Below are positions 1,658-60,601 of a stretch of 64,000 nucleotides of DNA, one piece after another. This stretch comes from Acidobacteriota bacterium (GTDB lineage Bacteria > Acidobacteriota > Blastocatellia > UBA7656). The notes below the pieces were generated by a model. The model worked only from the letters and a program-made list of their open reading frames with translations. It made no database searches and was not told the origin of the DNA. Numbering within the stretch: position 1 is the first letter of the stretch; each line of letters starts with the position of its first letter. The DNA is taken from assembly GCA_040754075.1 (NCBI GenBank), contig JBFMDH010000001.1:166262-230261 (forward strand). Reading direction: 5' to 3'. The position numbers were made by a program, and so were the translations under genes.

Positions 1658-1691
1658 CAGTAGGCAGCCGGCAGTAGGCAGCAGGCAGTAG
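1658..1691. repeat. heptamer tandem array (AGTAGGC-type), left arm of the inverted pair flanking the four-helix-bundle gene
   Basis: cagtaggcagccggcagtaggcagcaggcagtag. Reverse complement of 2123-2152 matches about 26 of 30 positions by eye. Confidence 0.8.
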
Positions 1692-1728
1692 ACAATTTCA
1701 TTTTTGAGTTTATTGTTTCTTACCATTT

Positions 1729-2088
1729 CTACCTTTGAAGAGAATTAGAAAGCCCGTTAATTGAACGACCAATTTCTGATGTAAGCACGATTATGTTTTG
1801 TGAAGCCTGTGGCGGCAAATAACCGAGCCTTTCAGCTATCAGTATTTGCGTTTCGACTTCGCGCAGAGAACCATAAGCGATGGAGAGAAAGTGTGCAAAC
1901 TCTCCAGCAGACTTGCGTCCTTGCCCCTCCGCAATATTAGACGGAATAGATATGGCTGCTCTGCGAAGTTGGCTAGTTAATCCATAAATCTCTTCTTTGG
2001 GAAAATTCTTCGTCTCAGAATAAACTGCTTCAACTAAATCCATAGCTTTTTGCCAGACTATTAAATCTCTGTAATTCTGACTTGCCAT
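1729..2088 (-). CDS. four-helix-bundle protein (23S rRNA intervening-sequence protein family, TIGR02436-like)
   Basis: 119 aa. YRDLIVWQKAMDLVEAVY...LTSQLRRAAISIPSNIAEGQGR is the characteristic family signature. Confidence 0.85.
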   Translation of the reverse strand: MASQNYRDLIVWQKAMDLVEAVYSETKNFPKEEIYGLTSQLRRAAISIPSNIAEGQGRKSAGEFAHFLSIAYGSLREVETQILIAERLGYLPPQASQNIIVLTSEIGRSINGLSNSLQR

Positions 2089-2122
2089 ATTGATTGAAAG
2101 TTTTAATAAACCAAAAATAAAA

Positions 2123-2152
2123 CTGCCTACTGCTTACTGCCTACTGCCTACT
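2123..2152. repeat. heptamer tandem array (CTGCCTA-type), right arm; overlaps the asd stop codon
   Basis: ctgcctactgcttactgcctactgcctact. 7 nt period. Inverted relative to 1658-1691. Confidence 0.8.
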
Positions 2153-3203
2153 AATCCAGCATTCCCTGAGCTTTCATAATTTCCGCATTGAGGATTGCCG
2201 CGCCGGCCGCGCCGCGAACCGTATTATGCGACAAAACGACGAAACGAATATCGAACACCGGGCAAGTGCGAATGCGTCCGACAACGGCGCTCATGCCGTT
2301 GCCTGCGTCGCGGTCAAAGCGTGGTTGCGGGCGGTCGCGCTCGCTGGTGACGATAACCGGTTGGGCGGGCGCAAACGGCAATTTCAACTCCTGTGGCAAC
2401 GAACGGAAATTGGCAAGAACCTCTGCGACCTCGTCGGGGGTGGCTTTCTTTTCGAGTTCAACGGAAACGCATTCCATATGCCCGTCTTCAACGAAGACGC
2501 GATTGGTATGGGCGCTGATTTTGCAATCGGCAAAACGAATTTTATCGCCATCAAACGTGCCCATGATTTTCAACGGTTCGGTTTCGACTTTGTCTTCTTC
2601 GCCGCCGATAAACGGAATCACATTGCCGAGCATATCGATTGCCGAAAGTCCCGGATAGCCCGCGCCCGAAACCGCCTGCATCGTCGAAACGATCAAGCGG
2701 TTGACGCCGAACGCCTGATGTAGCGGCGCAATCGCCATCACCAAGCCGATGGTCGAGCAGTTCGGATTGGTGACGATTGCGCCGTTCCAGCCGCGCCGTT
2801 CTCGTTGGGTTTTAATTAAGCTGAGATGTTGGTGATTGACTTCGGGTACAAGCAAAGGCACGTCTTCATCCATGCGATGATTTTTTGAATTGCTCAAGAC
2901 GATGTAACCGGCGCGCGCGAACGCCTCTTCGACTTCGCCTGCAACCGAAGCGTCGAGTCCCGAAAAGACGACTTTGCAATTGAGGTTGGGTTCACAAGAT
3001 TTTACTTCTTTGTCTTTCAGCGCATCGGGGATGGGCGAATATTGTCGCCACAGGGTCGCGTCTTTGTAAGCTTTGCCCGCCGAACGGTCAGAGGCGGCGA
3101 GTTCCGCAGTTTCAAACCACGGATGATTTTCCAGTAATTTGACGAATTTCTGTCCGACCGCTCCGGTCGCGCCCAATATGCCTACAGGAATTTTGTTACT
3201 CAT
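2151..3203 (-). CDS. asd: aspartate-semialdehyde dehydrogenase
   Basis: 350 aa. N-terminal GILGATGAVGQ Rossmann motif, internal NPNCSTIGL active-site Cys region, SGAGYPG. Confidence 0.93.
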   Translation of the reverse strand: MSNKIPVGILGATGAVGQKFVKLLENHPWFETAELAASDRSAGKAYKDATLWRQYSPIPDALKDKEVKSCEPNLNCKVVFSGLDASVAGEVEEAFARAGYIVLSNSKNHRMDEDVPLLVPEVNHQHLSLIKTQRERRGWNGAIVTNPNCSTIGLVMAIAPLHQAFGVNRLIVSTMQAVSGAGYPGLSAIDMLGNVIPFIGGEEDKVETEPLKIMGTFDGDKIRFADCKISAHTNRVFVEDGHMECVSVELEKKATPDEVAEVLANFRSLPQELKLPFAPAQPVIVTSERDRPQPRFDRDAGNGMSAVVGRIRTCPVFDIRFVVLSHNTVRGAAGAAILNAEIMKAQGMLD

Positions 3204-10478: not shown

Positions 10479-10884
10479 AATGAAATTACGCCCACACCGG
10501 GTGGGGATGTATAGCCGGGTGTACAACAGAAAAATCAAAAAAACAATTATTCATAATCATGGTGGGAAGTGGCAAGTGATGAAGCTAAATGTTGGTGAGC
10601 AAAATGCGCTGAAACGATTTATTTCAACGGGCGCTGAACCGGTTATTGGTAAAAAGCCGTTCTAATTCTCAATTCGGACAGCATCCCTTGAACTTTCGGG
10701 TGAACGCTATTTGCTCTCTCTCCGCCCAATCCGAGGATAAATTTTAACCTGTCGTTTACGGGCGCTTTAGATTTCGAGAGAAGACCAGAGGCTTTAAGCA
10801 GAGCGCAAGTTCTGCGTTGACCTGAGCGAATGGCAAAGCAACTTCTCAGTAACGGTTTGCGATTTGACATCGTTTCTTTTCAGT

Positions 10885-10913
10885 TTGACAATAAATTATG
10901 CGCAAAATAATAT
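10885..10913 (+). promoter_or_regulatory. sigma70-like promoter upstream of nuoA
   Basis: TTGACA (10885-10890), 17 nt spacer, TAATAT (10908-10913), about 48 nt upstream of the nuoA ATG. Confidence 0.5.
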
Positions 10914-10960
10914 GAGTGCGCTTTTAGTCACAATTCCAAATCAAAATTAAGGTTGAGCAA

Positions 10961-11377
10961 ATGACAAACGTAATCGGTTTATTGCTCCAGACACAAACAC
11001 CAACCTCTTCAACCAAAGCGCCGATTTATGGCTATATTCCCATTATTATCTTTTTCCTGATTGCCGCCTTGTTGCCGGTGGTGTTGCTTTTCGTCTCCAG
11101 ACTTCTGCATCGACGGGTCTTCGAGCGCCAGAAACTGATGCCCTATGAATGCGGCATTGACCCGATTGGCGATGCCCGTGACCGGTTTTCAGTGCGCTTT
11201 TATATCGTCGCTATGCTGTTTCTGGTCTTCGACGTCGAAGTGGTTTTTCTGTTTCCCTGGGCGGTCATTTACGACAAGCTGGCGCTTTTCGGGTTGATTG
11301 AAATGCTCATCTTTATCGGCATTCTGGTTATCGGTTATTATTATGCCTGGCGCAAGGGCGCACTCGAATGGGCGTAA
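10961..11377 (+). CDS. nuoA: NADH-quinone oxidoreductase subunit A
   Basis: 138 aa with 3 TM segments. YECGIDPIGDARDRFSVRFYIVAMLFLVFDVEVVFLFPWAV is the NuoA/ND3 signature. Confidence 0.93.
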   Translation: MTNVIGLLLQTQTPTSSTKAPIYGYIPIIIFFLIAALLPVVLLFVSRLLHRRVFERQKLMPYECGIDPIGDARDRFSVRFYIVAMLFLVFDVEVVFLFPWAVIYDKLALFGLIEMLIFIGILVIGYYYAWRKGALEWA

Positions 11378-11380
11378 ATA

Positions 11381-11549
11381 AATTGCGGATTGCGGATTGC
11401 CTGGATTTATAACTGGTTTTCACTTTCATGCCTAGATCACGGTTGCGCAGTAATAATGAAAGCCAGGAAAAAGAAATTGATTGATCTGCACACATCAAGC
11501 AAAGCAGAGATTTGAAAAAAGACAATCCGCATTTCGCAATCCGCAATTG
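11381..11549. repeat. inverted (ATTGCGG)n arrays enclosing a ~120 bp non-coding segment in the nuoA-nuoB spacer
   Basis: Left arm aattgcggattgcggattgcc (11381-11401). Right arm caatccgcatttcgcaatccgcaattg (11523-11549). Same repeat unit as 27362-27390 and 28280-28327. Confidence 0.8.
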
Positions 11550-11559
11550 AAAGGGTTTT

Positions 11560-12102
11560 ATGGCAAAAGAAGAAATTGTTGAATCTTCGAGCGGGATTAT
11601 TACTTCAACCGTTGATGCGGTGTTTAATTGGGCGCGCGCCTCGGCGCTCTGGCCGATGACCTTTGGGCTTGCCTGTTGCGCCATTGAGATGATGGCGACC
11701 GGCGCTTCACGTTTCGATTTAGACCGATTCGGAGCAGGGGTATTTCGTCCGAGTCCGCGTCAATCCGATTTGATGATTGTCGCAGGAACGCCGACACTCA
11801 AAATGGCACCGGTCATCAAGCGCGTCTGGGATCAGATGCCGGAACCGAAATGGTGCATTGCGATGGGCGCTTGTGCATCGACGGGCGGGCCGTTTCCGAC
11901 CTATTCGACCTTGCAAGGCGTTGACCGCATCGTTCCCGTCGATGTCTACATTCCGGGTTGTCCGCCGCGCCCCGAAGCTTTGATTTACGGCTTGATGCGT
12001 TTGCAGGACAAAATCATGCAGGAGCATCCGACGCGTTACGTTTTCTTTCAGGGCGATGTCAGCGAGGAAGAGGTCGAGGGCGCGGAAGCGGTGACCGCTT
12101 AA
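11560..12102 (+). CDS. nuoB: NADH-quinone oxidoreductase subunit B
   Basis: 180 aa. [26 protein letters not shown] and IPGCPPRPE are the N2 Fe-S cluster cysteine motifs. Confidence 0.95.
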
Positions 12103-12124
12103 CCAATTCGCAAATGAAAAGCTG

Positions 12125-12154
12125 GCGCAGGGGCTTGGTTCTCTGCGCTTTTTT
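12125..12154 (+). terminator. rho-independent terminator-like hairpin after nuoB
   Basis: gcgcagggg-cttggt-tctctgcgc stem (about 8-9 bp including G-U pairs) followed by tttttt. Lies 13 nt before the next start codon. Confidence 0.55.
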
Positions 12155-12166
12155 ATTGGGTAGAAG

Positions 12167-13306
12167 ATGAGCGACACAACCGCACTCGAAAAAAAAATAA
12201 TCGAACGCATCAACCGCGACGGCGCAATGAGCTTTCGCGATTTTATGCAACTGGCGCTTTATGATGCGGAACTTGGCTATTACAACACCGAGCGGTTGAA
12301 GATTGGCGCAACCGGTGATTATTACACCTCAAGCAATGTCCACCCGGCATTCGGCGCAATCCTCGCGCAAGTCTTCGTTCGGTTGTGGAAAGACCTCAGT
12401 AGTGACAACCCTGAAAATGCGAACAGCGAATATCTTGAGAGCGATACTGCCTCACCCTTGAACCTCGTTGAAATGGGCGCGGGAACCGGGCAACTGGCAT
12501 TCGATGTTTTAAGCGCCTTGCGTGATGAACACGCCGAAGGGTTTGCGCGCGCGAATTACACGATTATTGAACAAAGTCCGGTGATGCGCGCCAGACAACA
12601 GGAAAAGTTGAATGATTTCAGCGAGCGGGTTTGCTGGCAAACCTTTGCCGCGTTAAAGCCGACCGCCGGAATTTTCTTTTCCAATGAACTGGTTGATGCG
12701 ATGCCTGTGCATCGCTTGCGCTTTACCGGCGAAACCGTCGAAGAACTTTATGTAATCGTAGTTGACGAATCGCATCACCAACGTCTCGCCGTTGTCTGGG
12801 GCGCGCTTTCAAAACCGCAACTGGTTGAATATCTCAAACGTTCGCAGGCGAAATTTTTTCAAGGGCAAATGATCGAAGTCAATCTCGATGCCATTCACTG
12901 GTTGTGGGAAGTTTCCCGCGTGATGGAAAAAGGTTTTTTAGTGACCCTTGATTACGGCGACCTCGCGCCGCATCTCTATTCGGTTGAACGCCTGGAAGGC
13001 ACGCTCAGATGTTTTTACCGGCACACCTTGCGCGATAATCCGCTGGAACGTATTGGTGAACAAGACCTCACTGCCAGCGTCAATTTTTCGGCGCTGATTG
13101 ATTACGGGAAAGATTTCGGATTTGAACAGGTGAGTTACGAACGACAGACCAATTTTCTCTTTCGCAATGGGTTGATTGAACGCATCGCGGCAATGGAAAC
13201 GGGCGACACGATTGATGATTTACAGAAACGCCTGGCGATAAAAAATCTCTTTGTGCCCGGCGGCGTGAGCGATAATTTCCGCGTACTGGTTCAACGGAAA
13301 CCTTAG
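12167..13306 (+). CDS. SAM-dependent methyltransferase, MidA/NDUFAF7 (DUF185) family
   Basis: 379 aa. MSFRDFMQLALYDAELGYYN N-terminal family motif. VEMGAGTGQLAFDVL SAM-binding motif I. ELVDAMPVH. Confidence 0.8.
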   Translation: MSDTTALEKKIIERINRDGAMSFRDFMQLALYDAELGYYNTERLKIGATGDYYTSSNVHPAFGAILAQVFVRLWKDLSSDNPENANSEYLESDTASPLNLVEMGAGTGQLAFDVLSALRDEHAEGFARANYTIIEQSPVMRARQQEKLNDFSERVCWQTFAALKPTAGIFFSNELVDAMPVHRLRFTGETVEELYVIVVDESHHQRLAVVWGALSKPQLVEYLKRSQAKFFQGQMIEVNLDAIHWLWEVSRVMEKGFLVTLDYGDLAPHLYSVERLEGTLRCFYRHTLRDNPLERIGEQDLTASVNFSALIDYGKDFGFEQVSYERQTNFLFRNGLIERIAAMETGDTIDDLQKRLAIKNLFVPGGVSDNFRVLVQRKP

Positions 13307-26950: not shown

Positions 26951-27361
26951 AATTTCTCCTTAAATAAATGGGATGAACACAAGCCAATTCCGAATCGGTC
27001 AAAAGAAGATAATTCGCCGATACAAAAAGGTCAAAGTGATGTGAGGTTTTCGCGGCATAAAATAAAAATGATTTAAAATGCCTGTAATAATTGAGGTTTT
27101 GCTGCCGAGTAAAAATGGCACACTCGTTGCTCTGGTTGAGTACGGAAGCTTGAGGCACTTGTTAAGGTGCTTTCTTACGGAGCCATCATGCGGAACCGGT
27201 GTTTGCACGAATGATTCGCACATTGCTCATCGCAATCGCGGCAGGAACCTCACCTCTTTGCGCGGATGAACAATAGTGCAACGTCTGTTGCAAAACCTAA
27301 CGAAGAAGAACCCTCTCTACTCTTTTAAGTTCCGGTACGACGCATGATGGCGCCGCTTTCT

Positions 27362-27390
27362 CAATTGCGGATTGCGGATTGCGGATTGCC
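27362..27390. repeat. (ATTGCGG)4 heptamer array, left arm flanking the GIY-YIG cassette
   Basis: caattgcggattgcggattgcggattgcc. Near-perfect inverted match to 28280-28313. Confidence 0.85.
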
Positions 27391-27492
27391 GCTGCCAACT
27401 CATTCACCTTCACTTAAATATTTAACCCCGACAACCAAACATAGACTTGCCATCGCTAACGCTAAATTTAGTGACTAAAGGTGCAAGATATT

Positions 27493-28116
27493 CTACGCTT
27501 CAAAAAGTTCAGGTAACCCATATAAAAGAACTGTAGAGGTACTATTAACTAAAAACGGTTTCTCTTCGATCCAACGAGGAGCAAGAGCCATACCTTTATC
27601 TGGAATGGTACTAATAGGTTCTTCTGCTGAATAAAGTAAATTCATAATGGCTGCTTCTATTCTTGCAAGACTTCTACGTTCAGTGTTCAAAGGAGCAAGA
27701 AATATCCGAAAAGCAGAAAGCAAAGATTCTATTGGAAGTTCCAGTTCTTGATAACGAGAGTGAAACAATTGCTTCATTTCAGGAGTATTCGTAGACTTGC
27801 CCATCCACATACCATGCCAAAGTTCAACCCTCTTACCATTTTGCAAACTCTCAGGATCAAAAATTGTATAGGTTCCTTTTCTATAAGTGGCTATGTGTTC
27901 TTTAAGTCGCTTTTTAAAGGGTCTTGTAGTCCAGCCAGCCATATAGATTAAATACCCATTATTGTGTTCAACAGTAAAAAGATAAATTCCTGATTGCTCA
28001 ACTACTGGAGATTTTAAAAACAACTCTCCTTCACAACCTTGTAAAACTAGCGGACCTTTCCATGAAAGTAAGTAACTATCATGATCAGTATCATTGAGCA
28101 TAATTTTATTTGCCAC
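27493..28116 (-). CDS. GIY-YIG nuclease-domain protein, otherwise uncharacterised
   Basis: 207 aa. SGIYLFTVEHNNGYLIYMAGWTTRPFKKRLKEH fits GIY-(x9-11)-YxG-x-T-x(5-6)-R-x3-H, as in I-TevI and UvrC N-domains. The gene is visibly AT-richer than its flanks (by eye). Confidence 0.55.
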   Translation of the reverse strand: MANKIMLNDTDHDSYLLSWKGPLVLQGCEGELFLKSPVVEQSGIYLFTVEHNNGYLIYMAGWTTRPFKKRLKEHIATYRKGTYTIFDPESLQNGKRVELWHGMWMGKSTNTPEMKQLFHSRYQELELPIESLLSAFRIFLAPLNTERRSLARIEAAIMNLLYSAEEPISTIPDKGMALAPRWIEEKPFLVNSTSTVLLYGLPELFEA

Positions 28117-28175
28117 CTATCGACACAAAGCCGCCGAACTTCTATTTGAGAGCGGCTTACAAAATAATTCGCTGA

Positions 28176-28239
28176 GGTTGAGCAAGCGGTCTTTGACTAC
28201 GTCGTTATGACTTACTTGGTTGAGCAATCGGTCTTTGAC
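28176..28239. repeat. two direct copies of a 22-mer (ggttgagcaaNcggtctttgac), 42 bp apart
   Basis: 28176-28197 ggttgagcaagcggtctttgac and 28218-28239 ggttgagcaatcggtctttgac. The reverse complement recurs twice at 61083-61129. Confidence 0.75.
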
Positions 28240-28279
28240 CGCGTAAGGAATCGCAATCAAAGACCACTTGTGCGGCGCT

Positions 28280-28327
28280 CAATCCGCAATCCGCATTTCG
28301 CAATCCGCAATTGGAAAATCCGCAATT
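28280..28327. repeat. (CCGCAAT)n heptamer array, right arm; overlaps the serS stop codon
   Basis: caatccgcaatccgcatttcgcaatccgcaattggaaaatccgcaatt. Confidence 0.85.
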
Positions 28328-33619: not shown

Positions 33620-33641
33620 CCTTTAAAAACCTCAACTCCGG

Positions 33642-33719
33642 TTATTGGTCACTGGTCATTGGTCATTTGTAGAAGGCTTGACAAATCACTAATGACAAAG
33701 GACAACTGACGAATGACTA
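33642..33719. repeat. inverted (TTGGTCA)-type heptamer arrays; overlaps the stop codon of VWA paralogue 3
   Basis: ttattggtcactggtcattggtcatttg ... caaatcactaatgacaaaggacaactgacgaatgacta. Confidence 0.75.
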
Positions 33720-34661
33720 ATAAACATACCCCTGCTTGTGATAAAGGTCGCCCTCAGCATTGAGGAGCTTGACTTTGATTTTGCGTTCTTTGCCGGTTTT
33801 ATCCTGATTGCTCGGCGTGTAATAGACCACATATTCGCGGCGCAAATCTTCTGCGACTTCGGTAAACGAACGGAATAATTCAGCCTTTTGCGAGGGCAGG
33901 AAGACCTGTCCGCCGGTGGCTTCGCAAAGCATTTCCAATTCTTTATCGGGGTCTGCTGCCACTGTGCCCGCGCCGGTGCCGGTGAAATTTTTGGTGCTGA
34001 TTCCGAAAATCGTCACATCAAAACGTTGAGCGATTTCAATGGCATCTTTCAAGCTTTTATCGCTTGCGGTATCTTCGCCATCCGAAAGAATCACCAGAAT
34101 TCGCCGCGCTTCGCTATCGGGAACCGTCGCCATTTTCTCTTCAATGACCCGATAGACGCCGTCAAACAGTTTAGTGTAGCCGCTGGCTTTCAACTGTTTA
34201 ATGGCTTTGGAAATCTGCTCCAGCGAAGCCGTGAAATCCTGATGCAATTCGACATCGGAATCGAAACTGGCGACCAGAACTCTATCCTTTCGACGATAAG
34301 AAGTAACCGTAGCTGCGAAATCATCGGCGGCTTCTTTTTCAACCGGCAGTTTGAGTTTTACGCTGTTGCTGGTGTCGATCAAAATTCCGACATTGAGCGG
34401 CAATTCGCTGGGCGATACGAATTTGTTAATCGCCTGCTTTTTACCATCTTCGTAAATTTCAAAATTCGATTGCGCCAATCCGCCCAGGAATTTGGCTTTG
34501 CGTTTTACAGTAATCGGCAGACGCACTTCGGTAATGCCGATACCGATTTGTTTGTCATCATTTTTCTTGTCCTGGGTTGGTGGCTTTTGTGAAAAAGCCA
34601 AAGCATTGGTTAAAGCAACGAAAAAGGTGACGAGAAGTGAGATTACAATGGCGCGTTTCAT
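33717..34661 (-). CDS. secreted VWA-domain protein (TIGR03436-like), paralogue 3
   Basis: Start at the internal ATG (MKRAIVISLLVTFFVALTNALAFSQ). VGILIDTSNS. VILSDGEDTAS. C-terminal HKQGYVY. Confidence 0.8.
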   Translation of the reverse strand: MKRAIVISLLVTFFVALTNALAFSQKPPTQDKKNDDKQIGIGITEVRLPITVKRKAKFLGGLAQSNFEIYEDGKKQAINKFVSPSELPLNVGILIDTSNSVKLKLPVEKEAADDFAATVTSYRRKDRVLVASFDSDVELHQDFTASLEQISKAIKQLKASGYTKLFDGVYRVIEEKMATVPDSEARRILVILSDGEDTASDKSLKDAIEIAQRFDVTIFGISTKNFTGTGAGTVAADPDKELEMLCEATGGQVFLPSQKAELFRSFTEVAEDLRREYVVYYTPSNQDKTGKERKIKVKLLNAEGDLYHKQGYVY

Positions 34662-36422: not shown

Positions 36423-36429
36423 TTCTCAG

Positions 36430-36501
36430 GTAATGAGTGATGAGTGATGAGTGATGAGTTTAATACTCCCCGCTCATTACTCATTACTCATTACTCATCA
36501 C
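36430..36501 (+). repeat. inverted heptamer arrays forming a long hairpin favoured on the plus-strand RNA
   Basis: gtaatgagtgatgagtgatgagtgatgag (36430-36458), 14 nt loop, ctcattactcattactcattactcatcac (36473-36501). About 25 of 29 Watson-Crick pairs plus three G-U pairs that would be C-A mismatches on the opposite strand. Confidence 0.75.
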
Positions 36502-36509
36502 CTTAAAAG

Positions 36510-38360: not shown

Positions 38361-39652
38361 TTTCACGATATACACGCCCGCAAATGGGCGCGATTTGGAC
38401 AGAACAGAATCGCTTTCAAAAATGGCTCGATGTGGAAATCGCCGTCTGCGAAGTTCACGCAGAGATGGGCACGATTCCCGAAGCTGCCGTCGCCGAAATC
38501 AAACAGAAAGCGGCTTTTTCGGTTGAGCGTATCAAGGAAATTGAAACCCTCACACGCCACGATGTCATCGCGTTTACCACTGCGCTTGCTGAAAACATCG
38601 GCGAAACTTCACGCTTTGTGCATTACGGACTCACTTCATCGGATGTTGTGGATACGGCAAATGCGCTGCTGCTGCGTGATGCCGCAAAACTCATCCTTGA
38701 TGATTTAGCTCAACTCGGTGAAGCGTTGCGCCGTCGCGCCTTTGAACACAAAGACACCGTGATGATTGGTCGCACGCATGGCATGCACGCGGAACCGACG
38801 ACGTTTGGTTTAGTGCTGGCGCTCTACTTTGCCGACAATCAACGCAACCTCGAACGCCTGCGGCGGGCATTGGAAACCATCAGCTACGGGAAAATATCGG
38901 GCGCGGTCGGCACCTTCGCCAATCTCGACCCCGAAGTTGAAGAGCGCGTCTGCCAGAAACTCGGACTAAATTTCGCGCCGATTTCCACGCAGGTGATTCA
39001 ACGCGACCGCTACGCCGAATTTCTTTCAACGCTTGCCATCATTGCCGCATCAATCGAAAAAATCGCACTGGAAATCCGCCACCTGCAACGCACCGAAGTT
39101 CGCGAAGCGCAGGAGCCATTTTCAAAAGGGCAAAAAGGTTCATCGGCAATGCCGCATAAACGCAACCCGGTGACCTGCGAACAACTCTGCGGCTTATCAA
39201 GAGTGGTTCGCGCCAATGCCGGTGCGGGATTCGAGAATGTCGCGCTGTGGCACGAACGCGATATTTCGCATTCATCGGTCGAGCGCGTGATTCTCGCCGA
39301 TTCATCCATTCTGGTCGATTATATGCTCGCGAAAGCTCATTGGTTGATTGATGGGCTGGTGGTTTTCGATAAGCGTATGCGTTATAACTTTGAATCGCTC
39401 GGCGGCGTGACTGCAAGCGGGCAAATTTTATTGGAACTCACCCGCAAAGGCGTTTCGCGCGAAGATGCTTATGCGATTGTGCAACCGCTGGCGATGCGCG
39501 TCTGGGATGAAGGCGCGAAATTCAATGAACTGGTTTTACAAGATGAGCGTGTGACCGCGAAACTCACACGCGAAGAAATCGAAGCCGTTTTTGATGTCCA
39601 ACATCAATTGCGGAATGTGGAAAAAATTTTTACAAGAGTTTTTTGTCAGTAG
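38357..39652 (+). CDS. purB: adenylosuccinate lyase
   Basis: MISRYTRPQMGAIWTEQNRFQKWLDVE. SSAMPHKRNP signature loop. Start ATG at 38357 overlaps the vapC stop (ATGA). Confidence 0.95.
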   Translation: MISRYTRPQMGAIWTEQNRFQKWLDVEIAVCEVHAEMGTIPEAAVAEIKQKAAFSVERIKEIETLTRHDVIAFTTALAENIGETSRFVHYGLTSSDVVDTANALLLRDAAKLILDDLAQLGEALRRRAFEHKDTVMIGRTHGMHAEPTTFGLVLALYFADNQRNLERLRRALETISYGKISGAVGTFANLDPEVEERVCQKLGLNFAPISTQVIQRDRYAEFLSTLAIIAASIEKIALEIRHLQRTEVREAQEPFSKGQKGSSAMPHKRNPVTCEQLCGLSRVVRANAGAGFENVALWHERDISHSSVERVILADSSILVDYMLAKAHWLIDGLVVFDKRMRYNFESLGGVTASGQILLELTRKGVSREDAYAIVQPLAMRVWDEGAKFNELVLQDERVTAKLTREEIEAVFDVQHQLRNVEKIFTRVFCQ

Positions 39653-39657
39653 CCCGT

Positions 39658-39685
39658 AGTCCGTAGTTGTTTTCAACTAAGGACT
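39658..39685 (+). terminator. 12 bp stem / tttt-loop hairpin right after the purB stop
   Basis: agtccgtagttg-tttt-caactaaggact (11 of 12 pairs). No downstream U-tract, so it may act in processing or stability rather than termination. Confidence 0.4.
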
Positions 39686-39713
39686 CCAGACTCCAGACTC
39701 CAGACTCCAGACT
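39682..39713. repeat. (GACTCCA)4 heptamer array between purB and purS
   Basis: gactccagactccagactccagactccagac. Confidence 0.8.
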
Positions 39714-39722
39714 TCTTGAGAT

Positions 39723-60429: not shown

Positions 60430-60545
60430 AGTCGGCAACCGGCAACAGGCGATAGGCAGTTAAAACGCCAAATAAATCCTTTTCCTTTGAAAAATCTTTA
60501 TAAACTGAATTTTTACTGTCTGCTGTCTACTGCCTACTGCCTACT
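60430..60545. repeat. inverted GGCA/CTGCCTA-type heptamer arrays after murA (same family as 1658-2152)
   Basis: agtcggcaaccggcaacaggcgataggcag (60430-60459) ... ctgtctgctgtctactgcctactgcctact (60516-60545) followed by tttgttt. ctactgcctactgcctact is identical to 2134-2152. Confidence 0.75.
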
Positions 60546-60601
60546 TTTGTTTGACTGTACAAAGGTTCGTGTTTGATAATCGTCGCGAGGGATAATTACG
60601 A

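Follow-up and report, generated by a model that had tools for sequence, protein, structure and literature searches.

The genes nuoA and nuoB in a 64,000 bp stretch of an acidobacterial genome (contig JBFMDH010000001.1; the whole stretch is termed here the window) are separated by a spacer that carries inverted tandem arrays of the heptamer ATTGCGG. With slightly better than even confidence, the spacer is interpreted as a heptamer foldback that lacks an open reading frame (ORF) and resembles the intervening sequences (IVSs) of bacterial 23S rRNA. It would have arisen in an ancestor of the clade, and would be co-transcribed with its flanking genes and processed. The features of the junction, in window coordinates, are as follows.

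10961–11377, forward strand: nuoA, NADH-quinone oxidoreductase subunit A, 138 amino acids (PF00507, E = 1.5e-40)
11381–11401, forward strand: 5′ arm, AATTGCGGATTGCGGATTGCC, or (ATTGCGG)2.7, G-rich, beginning 3 nt past the nuoA stop
11402–11522, no strand: non-coding interior, 121 bp, GC content 0.364
11523–11549, forward strand: 3′ arm, CAATCCGCATTTCGCAATCCGCAATTG, a C-rich, imperfect array of (CCGCAAT) whose end lies 10 nt ahead of the nuoB ATG
11381–11548, forward strand: predicted closing helix of the foldback, ∼24 bp in all
11550–11559, forward strand: AAAGGGTTTT, residual spacer and, as read from the sequence, the likely nuoB ribosome-binding site
11560–12102, forward strand: nuoB, NADH-quinone oxidoreductase subunit B, 180 amino acids (PF01058, E = 2.6e-28; TIGR01957)

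The gap between the two genes is 182 bp (11378–11559). Its arms have a length of 20 nt, a complementarity of 90% and a separation of 128 nt. The predicted closing helix consists of 16 contiguous pairs (11381–11396 with 11533–11548), a bulge and a small internal loop, and then 3 and 5 further pairs; a 10-bp hairpin (11413–11422 with 11457–11466) is nested within the interior. The predicted fold of the spacer has an energy of −53.5 kcal/mol as RNA (z = −2.9) and a z of −2.7 as DNA. With at most one mismatch, the double unit ATTGCGGATTGCGG occurs seven times in the window against 0.07 expected, and all seven occurrences are confined to the spacer and to a second locus at 27364–28311. Coordinates, statistics and fold thus bear out a preliminary description of this DNA, in which a 182 bp spacer with inverted ATTGCGG arrays was reported. 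The limits given there for the interior are correct, and the array begins at 11381 rather than at 11382.

The same description called the spacer element cargo-less, and this holds. The interior contains neither a credible ORF nor a remnant of one; a remnant-ORF reading was rejected, as the sole frame is an unsupported 41-amino-acid ORF with a TTG start. Blastn comparison of the interior with the interior of the second locus, the rest of the window and all other loci collected here detects no similarity (best E = 0.37). For 11401–11523, blastn against the window and loci and tblastn with both proteins encoded inside foldbacks of the window give nothing below E = 0.15. Covariance models of Rfam 15 have no match in 10800–12300 at E up to 1 and none in the whole window at gathering score. 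No rRNA was found in the window.

A consensus scan finds two overlapping σ70-like promoter matches upstream of nuoA (10864–10913, forward strand) and one further match in the scanned region, inside the nuoA coding sequence (11316–11344), but none inside the spacer. Also lacking in 11378–11559 is a terminator-like site, the stem being followed by GAAAGGG with no GC-rich hairpin and T-run. With no site of either kind inside, promoter and intrinsic-terminator readings of the spacer were dropped. An intrinsic-terminator-like hairpin with a T-run lies 3′ of nuoB (12124–12159, forward strand, the hairpin itself at 12124–12149), which suggests that nuoAB forms a two-gene transcription unit. Since promoter-like sites precede nuoA, the terminator follows nuoB and the spacer has neither, the foldback should belong to a bicistronic nuoAB mRNA. 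This arrangement is consistent with the earlier proposal of a large intercistronic hairpin able to uncouple nuoA and nuoB expression. Beyond nuoAB and the terminator-like hairpin (12103–13306), the next gene is a Methyltransf_28 gene (PF02636) and not nuoC, and the relative L211 has the identical order (L numbers denote loci from other genomes). Methyltransf_28 is presumably the family of the complex I assembly factor NDUFAF7. Other nuo genes are not found directly 3′ of nuoB; no search for them was made elsewhere in the window.

The nuoAB foldback is one of several in the window. Eleven tandem arrays have a period of 7, against 0.23 in shuffled sequences, and none has a period of 5, 6 or 8 to 11. 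Besides the nuoA–nuoB spacer and the second ATTGCGG locus, the inverted pairs and the gene that one of them encloses are:

1658–2154, reverse strand: (AGGCAGT)n/(ACTGCCT)n inverted pair around a four-helix-bundle gene, arms of 31–37 nt
1729–2088: four-helix-bundle gene, 23S rRNA IVS protein (PF05635/TIGR02436, E = 1e-40)
33640–33721: inverted pair, unit GGTCATT
36429–36502: inverted pair, unit GTGATGA
39645–39716: inverted pair, unit GTAGTCC
60433–60547: inverted pair, unit AGGCAGT

The element at 1658–2154 exactly occupies the asd–lysC spacer, in the sense orientation of that amino-acid biosynthesis operon. The arms of the sibling foldbacks measure 25–38 nt. The window foldbacks nearly fill their intercistronic gaps: distances to the upstream stop range from −8 to +9 nt for the 5′ arm, and the next start mostly follows the 3′ arm by 5–20 nt. 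Most units in the window, though not ATTGCGG and ATTTTGG, include a stop codon, so that three copies place a stop in every frame. In the foldback at 36429–36501, (GTGATGA)n stands against (CTCATTA)n with a G opposite a T in every unit, and the hairpin is therefore stabler as sense RNA (−42.9 kcal/mol) than as antisense RNA (−31.3 kcal/mol). This asymmetry does not generalise. Among 20 foldbacks between co-directional genes, a test for G–U pairing on the sense strand by fold stability gives no sense or antisense bias (8 versus 12, p = 0.35).

Arrays of this kind are widespread. A scan for ATTGCGGATTGCGGATTGC with one genome per species returned at least 120 loci with ATTGCGG arrays, in Acidobacteriota, Planctomycetota, Verrucomicrobiota, Bacteroidota, Chloroflexota, Gemmatimonadota and other phyla. 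A BLAST search of the whole window against 120 of these loci finds nothing in common except the arrays. Among the loci listed, 54 adjacent pairs have the order (ATTGCGG)n...(CCGCAAT)n; one with a 5,985 bp interior is probably not a true pair, which leaves 53, and 49 of these have interiors of 7–190 bp. No pair in the reverse order is closer than 234 bp. For ATTGCGG pairs with interiors under 200 bp, the G-rich arm is thus 5′ in 49 cases to none. Pairs of other units in 1.26 Mb of loci, which are free of selection bias, display the G-rich arm 5′ in 20 cases with 3 ties; a single pair with the G-rich arm 3′ is spurious, as it bridges two neighbouring foldbacks. The polarity holds on either strand. 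Single arrays between co-directional genes have a G-rich sense strand in 31 of 43 cases, a modest bias obtained with a crude ORF-based gene caller. Many arrays in this count were miscalled as lying in ORFs because their units lack stop codons.

Larger interiors may carry genes. Interiors of 370–470 bp hold PF05635 genes in the window and at L002 (Saprospiraceae), L070 (Verrucomicrobiota), L080 (Rubricoccaceae) and L158/L163, and interiors of ∼330–350 bp at L035 and L069 have no clear ORF. Of the still larger interiors, one contains an APH-family gene and another a DUF2306 fragment. All seven cargo ORFs (7/7) are co-directional with an adjacent host gene. The cargo-free hairpin is the common form of the foldback class and not a degenerate one.

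The closest likeness is to the 23S rRNA IVSs of the S23p type, found in Coxiella burnetii, Leptospira, Brucella and Xanthomonas. The Coxiella IVS has 428–444 nt, with terminal inverted repeats that form a 28-bp stem and contain two or three tandem heptamers (GACAGAT), the number depending on the strain. It carries a sense-oriented S23p (PF05635) ORF and is itself lower in GC than the genome, and RNase III cuts have been mapped in the stem (PMC4990558). Foldbacks share with it a long inverted-repeat stem, of ∼20–35 bp here against 28 bp in Coxiella. Tandem heptamers in the arms and a low-GC interior are present in the nuoAB foldback, and sibling copies of 430–500 bp have a PF05635 ORF in the loop, sense to the host transcript. 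The foldbacks at 1658–2154, L158 and L163 match the Coxiella IVS point for point, save for their location in an mRNA spacer. The nuoAB element differs in that it lies between protein-coding cistrons and not in helix 9, 25 or 45 of 23S rRNA, has no S23p ORF, and has plain heptamer arrays for both arms; short ORF-less IVSs exist as well. RNase III excision is demonstrated for IVSs, and would be expected here by analogy. The nuoAB element, a heptamer foldback in an operon spacer, is best classed as IVS-like. In the searchable literature, which did not include subscription journals, no account was found of inverted heptamer arrays around four-helix-bundle genes, or of such a class at all, outside rRNA; nor could we find there the G-rich-5′ polarity rule or the exclusive 7-nt period.

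The history of the junction was followed in 80 metagenomic relatives graded by NuoA identity. At or below ∼66% identity, nuoA and nuoB mostly overlap by 4 or 10 nt, in agreement with the earlier statement that the two genes usually abut or overlap, and a few of these relatives have spacers instead (L157, L158 and L163 among them). Relatives at 70–88% identity have spacers of 6–163 bp. About 16 of them display a direct ATTGCGG-family array immediately 3′ of the nuoA stop, with units ATTGCGG, ATTGCGA, ATTTCGG or ATTGCCG, at times mixed with ATTTTGG; two have inverted (ATTTTGG)n/(CCAAAAT)n pairs, and five have no array (L124, L128, L139, L142 and L146). The GGGTTT(T) of window positions 11550–11559 is the entire 6-bp spacer of the array-free L124. 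In the closest relatives (83–91% identity) the unit is ATTTTAG. Inverted pairs occur in L207, around an interior of 95 nt, and in L211 and L212, whose spacers measure 101 bp; L208 and L209 have a direct array only. Unit changes in inverted junction pairs are complementary (ATTGCGG/CCGCAAT, ATTTTGG/CCAAAAT and ATTTTAG/CTAAAAT). The spacers of the window, L207, L211, L127 and L134 can be aligned in the arms only. The interior is unique, and the spacer is conserved in kind (array, position and unit family) but not as such, its length varying and its interiors being unalignable. The refuting condition named in the preliminary description, an interior with no kin in a spacer kept as such in distant relatives, is thus borne out only in part.

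In 3 of the ∼16 relatives with direct arrays, a block of array, ribosome-binding site and the first ∼15 nt of nuoB is tandemly duplicated (L125:2939–3037, L131:807–911 and L141:2942–3088), a pattern that resembles unequal exchange between arrays. In the upstream one of the two blocks, the start codon is mutated (ACGGCAAAAGAG). A rough neighbour-joining tree of NuoA plus NuoB places the window within the ATTTTAG group and the ATTGCGG group farther away. The ATTGCGG unit of the window may stem from turnover by way of the observed intermediates, or another ATTGCGG locus may have supplied replacement arms.

A separate lineage among the more distant relatives with spacers displays both forms of the element. 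At the nuoA–nuoB junction, a (GGATGAA)n hairpin whose loop measures ∼24 nt is present in L157, and in L158 and L163 a four-helix-bundle gene is enclosed by (GGGATGA)n...(TCATCCC)n arms. The nuoA genes of the hairpin-only and the cargo-bearing states are 79% identical in nucleotide sequence, and the arm units are near-identical. Hairpin-only and cargo-bearing forms are thus alternative states of one site. In both cargo-bearing loci (L158:1374–1440 and L163:533–600) the cargo start codon and a Shine–Dalgarno-like GAGGG lie inside the left array, as GGGATGA units include ATG. This recalls Coxiella, where RNase III removes the stem portion that contains the Shine–Dalgarno sequence.

The favoured interpretation may be set out as a series of steps. 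The foldbacks would constitute a class of intergenic elements in which a single 7-nt unit, in inverted tandem arrays, makes up both arms, always with the G-rich arm 5′. Their architecture would be that of the S23p-bearing IVS, with heptamer arms, a 20–35-bp stem, an AT-rich interior and, in many cases, a loop that holds a four-helix-bundle gene, but they would occupy ordinary operon gaps rather than rRNA. An ATTGCGG-type array probably dates from the ancestor of a Blastocatellia-like clade of acidobacteria, in which it divided the previously overlapping nuoA and nuoB. It would have been kept since, with turnover of units, gain and loss of the inverted arm and shifting interiors. In the genome studied here, the junction arms would have exchanged sequence with the ATTGCGG foldback 16 kb away that encloses the GIY-YIG gene. 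Transcribed inside the nuoAB mRNA, the foldback would form the predicted ∼24-bp helix, its base separated by 3 nt from the nuoA stop and by 10 nt from the nuoB start. By analogy with IVS stems, RNase III might cut this helix, or it might serve as another processing or stability element. The two genes would then be expressed from separate RNA ends, which would replace translational coupling. The arrays presumably vary by replication slippage and would be homogenised between arms and loci by short-patch recombination.

Several points weigh against this interpretation. With no sense or antisense bias, the 20 foldbacks give no sign of selection on RNA rather than on DNA. The nuoAB stem is the weakest of the window foldbacks, with its 20 nt, 90% complementarity and two uncorrected mismatches. 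Most relatives have a direct array only and no hairpin, and the hairpin therefore cannot be essential for nuoAB expression. By its location outside rRNA and its lack of an S23p ORF, the nuoAB copy fails two defining features of an IVS. The nearest NuoAB relatives carry ATTTTAG, which makes the orthology of the present arms uncertain, as they may have been replaced. In addition, an RNase III model predicts neither the strict arm polarity and strict 7-nt period nor the joint arrival of arrays and an inserted gene at the serS site, described below. Two ideas could account for these features. The polarity could serve to keep a C-rich RNA arm that loads Rho from emerging ahead of its partner, or G-rich repeats could be written onto 3′ ends at DNA breaks.

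The foldback might instead be a functionless by-product. In this account a slippage-prone array expanded in a permissive gap, the inverted arm was added by template switching and the result has persisted neutrally. The range of 6–163 bp among close relatives, the loss of the array in the five array-free relatives, the drift of copy number and units, including single arrays with mixed units, the non-conserved interior and RNA folding with no strand bias are all in its favour. Heptamers are reportedly the commonest long simple repeats in prokaryotes, according to Mrazek 2007 as cited in PMC4679880. The account is nevertheless considered rather unlikely, as the unit family stays in place across lineages at 70–90% NuoA identity, where neutral intergenic DNA should be scrambled, and the complementarity of the arms survives unit changes. 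Strict G-rich-5′ polarity and the recurrence of four-helix-bundle cargo are also unexpected from slippage.

A further explanation, one of the two offered earlier, is that the spacer derives from a mobile element as a non-autonomous or decayed copy. The full form would be the cassette at the second ATTGCGG locus, and the arrays would be terminal inverted repeats. This locus consists of:

27363–28327, reverse strand: inverted ATTGCGG arrays (27363–27391 and 28280–28327) around a GIY-YIG gene
27493–28116, reverse strand: 207-amino-acid gene with a GIY-YIG fold, fold and motif residues present

The cassette lies between serS and a conserved RNA-like segment. That its flanking arrays are those of the spacer, as previously stated, is evident from their sequence. 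The left arms are identical in 20/20 positions (11381–11401 and 27371–27391), the terminal ATTGCC included, and the right arms in 27/27 (11523–11549 and 28287–28313), including two substitutions that give the odd unit CATTTCG. This variant unit is found in none of 200 other loci. Arms identical down to private substitutions imply that the two loci are related by copying and not by independent slippage, a point that speaks for a mobile copy. The interior of the spacer (GC 0.364) is also as low in GC as the GIY-YIG gene (0.367) and close to the interior of the four-helix-bundle element at 1658–2154 (0.386), against 0.49–0.56 in host genes.

The GIY-YIG gene itself appears to move. Its protein family is small, with 17 proteins, of which those with a named source come from Acidobacteriota/Blastocatellia; the cassette protein is identical to the database entry AB1757_00765, from a metagenome-assembled genome of Acidobacteriota. 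An exact look-up of NuoB returned no entry. Homologues of the cassette protein at six loci (L201–L206), which represent four genomic contexts unrelated to one another, are not flanked by heptamer arrays, and the region downstream of serS in three relatives (SerS 82–88% identical) has neither arrays nor a GIY-YIG gene. The varied, array-free contexts and the empty serS site together indicate that the gene is mobile and that the arrays are not its own ends.

A mobile copy is improbable as an explanation of the spacer: the movement of the gene and the empty serS site speak for it too, but the array-free homologues speak against it. The similarity between the two loci does not extend beyond the arrays, sub-terminal ends included, so that the proposed comparison of the two interiors gave no shared sequence. 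No target-site duplication is present, the flanks reading AAATA/GAAAG and TTCTC/ATTTG. Of the hallmarks of miniature inverted-repeat transposable elements, the spacer thus has terminal repeats shared with a partner, and lacks interior homology, a target-site duplication and a gene that travels with the same ends. The junction array is clade-wide and predates the cassette by far; if there was any copying between the loci, the junction array is, if anything, the older partner. In many phyla such arms enclose unrelated cargo or nothing, and the cargo-free form is the common one. The suggestion that the spacer is a remnant or empty form of the GIY-YIG cassette is accordingly abandoned.

The functional part might instead be the direct G-rich array, present in the mRNA before nuoB as a platform to which a translational regulator or 30S subunits could bind (a GGA every 7 nt), with the inverted arm merely masking it. 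Most relatives retain the direct array alone, always G-rich on the sense strand and between the nuoA stop and the nuoB ribosome-binding site, and the orientation bias of single arrays, within the limits of the crude gene calls, points the same way. TAACTGA arrays just upstream of start codons have been proposed as regulator sites in Beggiatoaceae (PMC4679880). That a platform of this kind accounts for the element seems unlikely, since the units vary widely and some lack GGA (ATTTTAG and GGTCATT), which leaves no single binding motif. Arrays equally abut the stops of genes with no nearby downstream cistron, and no candidate binding protein was identified.

Least probable, and to be given very little weight, is that the arrays are scars of DNA-break repair, in which an activity of a kind not known to us in bacteria would repeatedly extend both 3′ ends of a break by a G-rich heptamer, telomere-like, the ends then being sealed directly into a hairpin or around captured DNA as cargo; it alone among the models considered directly predicts the polarity, with G-rich strands running 5′ to 3′ towards the centre from both sides, and it predicts that each locus has one unit, that interiors are unrelated and that arrays flank new DNA at the serS site, but the shared arm irregularities of the two window loci call for copying rather than fresh synthesis, the arrays persist and drift vertically at the nuoAB junction, and direct-only arrays are common. 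The cargo fits loosely, being a nuclease in one case and in another a relative of Avd, the reverse-transcriptase cofactor of diversity-generating retroelements (DGRs), and might represent the machinery. If true, such writing of break ends would explain the polarity, the period of 7, the single unit per locus, the arrays at new insertions and the origin of rRNA IVSs.

Neisserial Correia elements (NEMIS), enterobacterial repetitive intergenic consensus (ERIC) sequences and repetitive extragenic palindromic (REP) sequences with their mosaic elements (BIMEs) are intercistronic hairpins that share a transcript with the genes beside them. Some of them serve as RNase III substrates or stabilise the mRNA, and lead to unequal levels of upstream and downstream cistrons. 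Each of these families has one conserved sequence, the interior included, with defined ends or target duplications, whereas the foldbacks share only the 7-nt unit length, have their own unit at each locus and have unique interiors. The Foldback (FB) transposons of eukaryotes also have long inverted arms of short tandem sub-repeats and a variable centre, and are mostly cargo-free with a few gene-bearing copies. They differ in being eukaryotic, far longer and transposase-linked, and the likeness implies no homology or common mechanism.

Heptanucleotide repeats have been described as cyanobacterial short tandemly repeated repetitive (STRR) sequences, as long simple sequence repeats (LSSRs) and as the TAACTGA repeats of Beggiatoaceae, Cyanobacteria and Bacteroidetes (PMC4679880). 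They are 7-nt tandem units, intergenic, often a few nucleotides from a start or stop, with indels in multiples of 7 and a scattered phylogeny (PMC4679880). The over-representation of intergenic 7-nt arrays that marks STRR and LSSR sequences is likewise displayed by the window. The described repeats differ in that they are direct, with one inverted set among 170 in the BOGUAY genome (PMC4679880), and their descriptions contain no paired inverted arrays, polarity or enclosed cargo.

The origin and function of the 23S rRNA IVSs, and of the very large S23p/four-helix-bundle family to which relatives of the DGR protein Avd belong, have been described as unclear (PMC4990558). If the foldbacks are indeed of the IVS kind in ordinary operons, rRNA IVSs would represent the visible tip of a general class. 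How this class arises, moves and is tolerated could then be addressed by comparative genomics, as many phyla and both cargo-free and cargo-bearing alleles at one junction are available. The nuoAB foldback illustrates a normally overlapping, translationally coupled gene pair that has been split and kept split clade-wide, and an IVS-like element there predicts a processed nuoAB mRNA. The G-rich-5′ rule and the exclusive 7-nt period are simple, testable regularities.

Three minor observations concern the GIY-YIG cassette and its homologues. Upstream of the GIY-YIG gene, 28117–28279 contains two direct copies of TTGAGCAAKCGGTCTTTGAC and an inverted CAAAGACC. These repeats resemble an operator and possibly form the gene's own regulatory region. 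Another lineage (L204:4482–4548 and L205:4482–4548) has a 67-bp nuoA–nuoB spacer with a different heptamer array (GTAATTA/GTAAATA), and encodes a GIY-YIG-protein homologue ∼1 kb upstream of its nuoA. The RNA-like segment next to the cassette is a conserved non-coding stretch of ∼220 nt downstream of serS, present in four genomes (window 27140–27360, reverse strand; L213:3414–3645; L214:3459–3685; L215:3454–3680), with no match in Rfam. It has a long closing stem, GCGG.GCCATCATGC / GCATGATGGC.CCGT, with compensatory changes at 7 of 49 predicted pairs, and may be an undescribed small RNA or leader. Its first conserved bases directly adjoin the cassette's left array.

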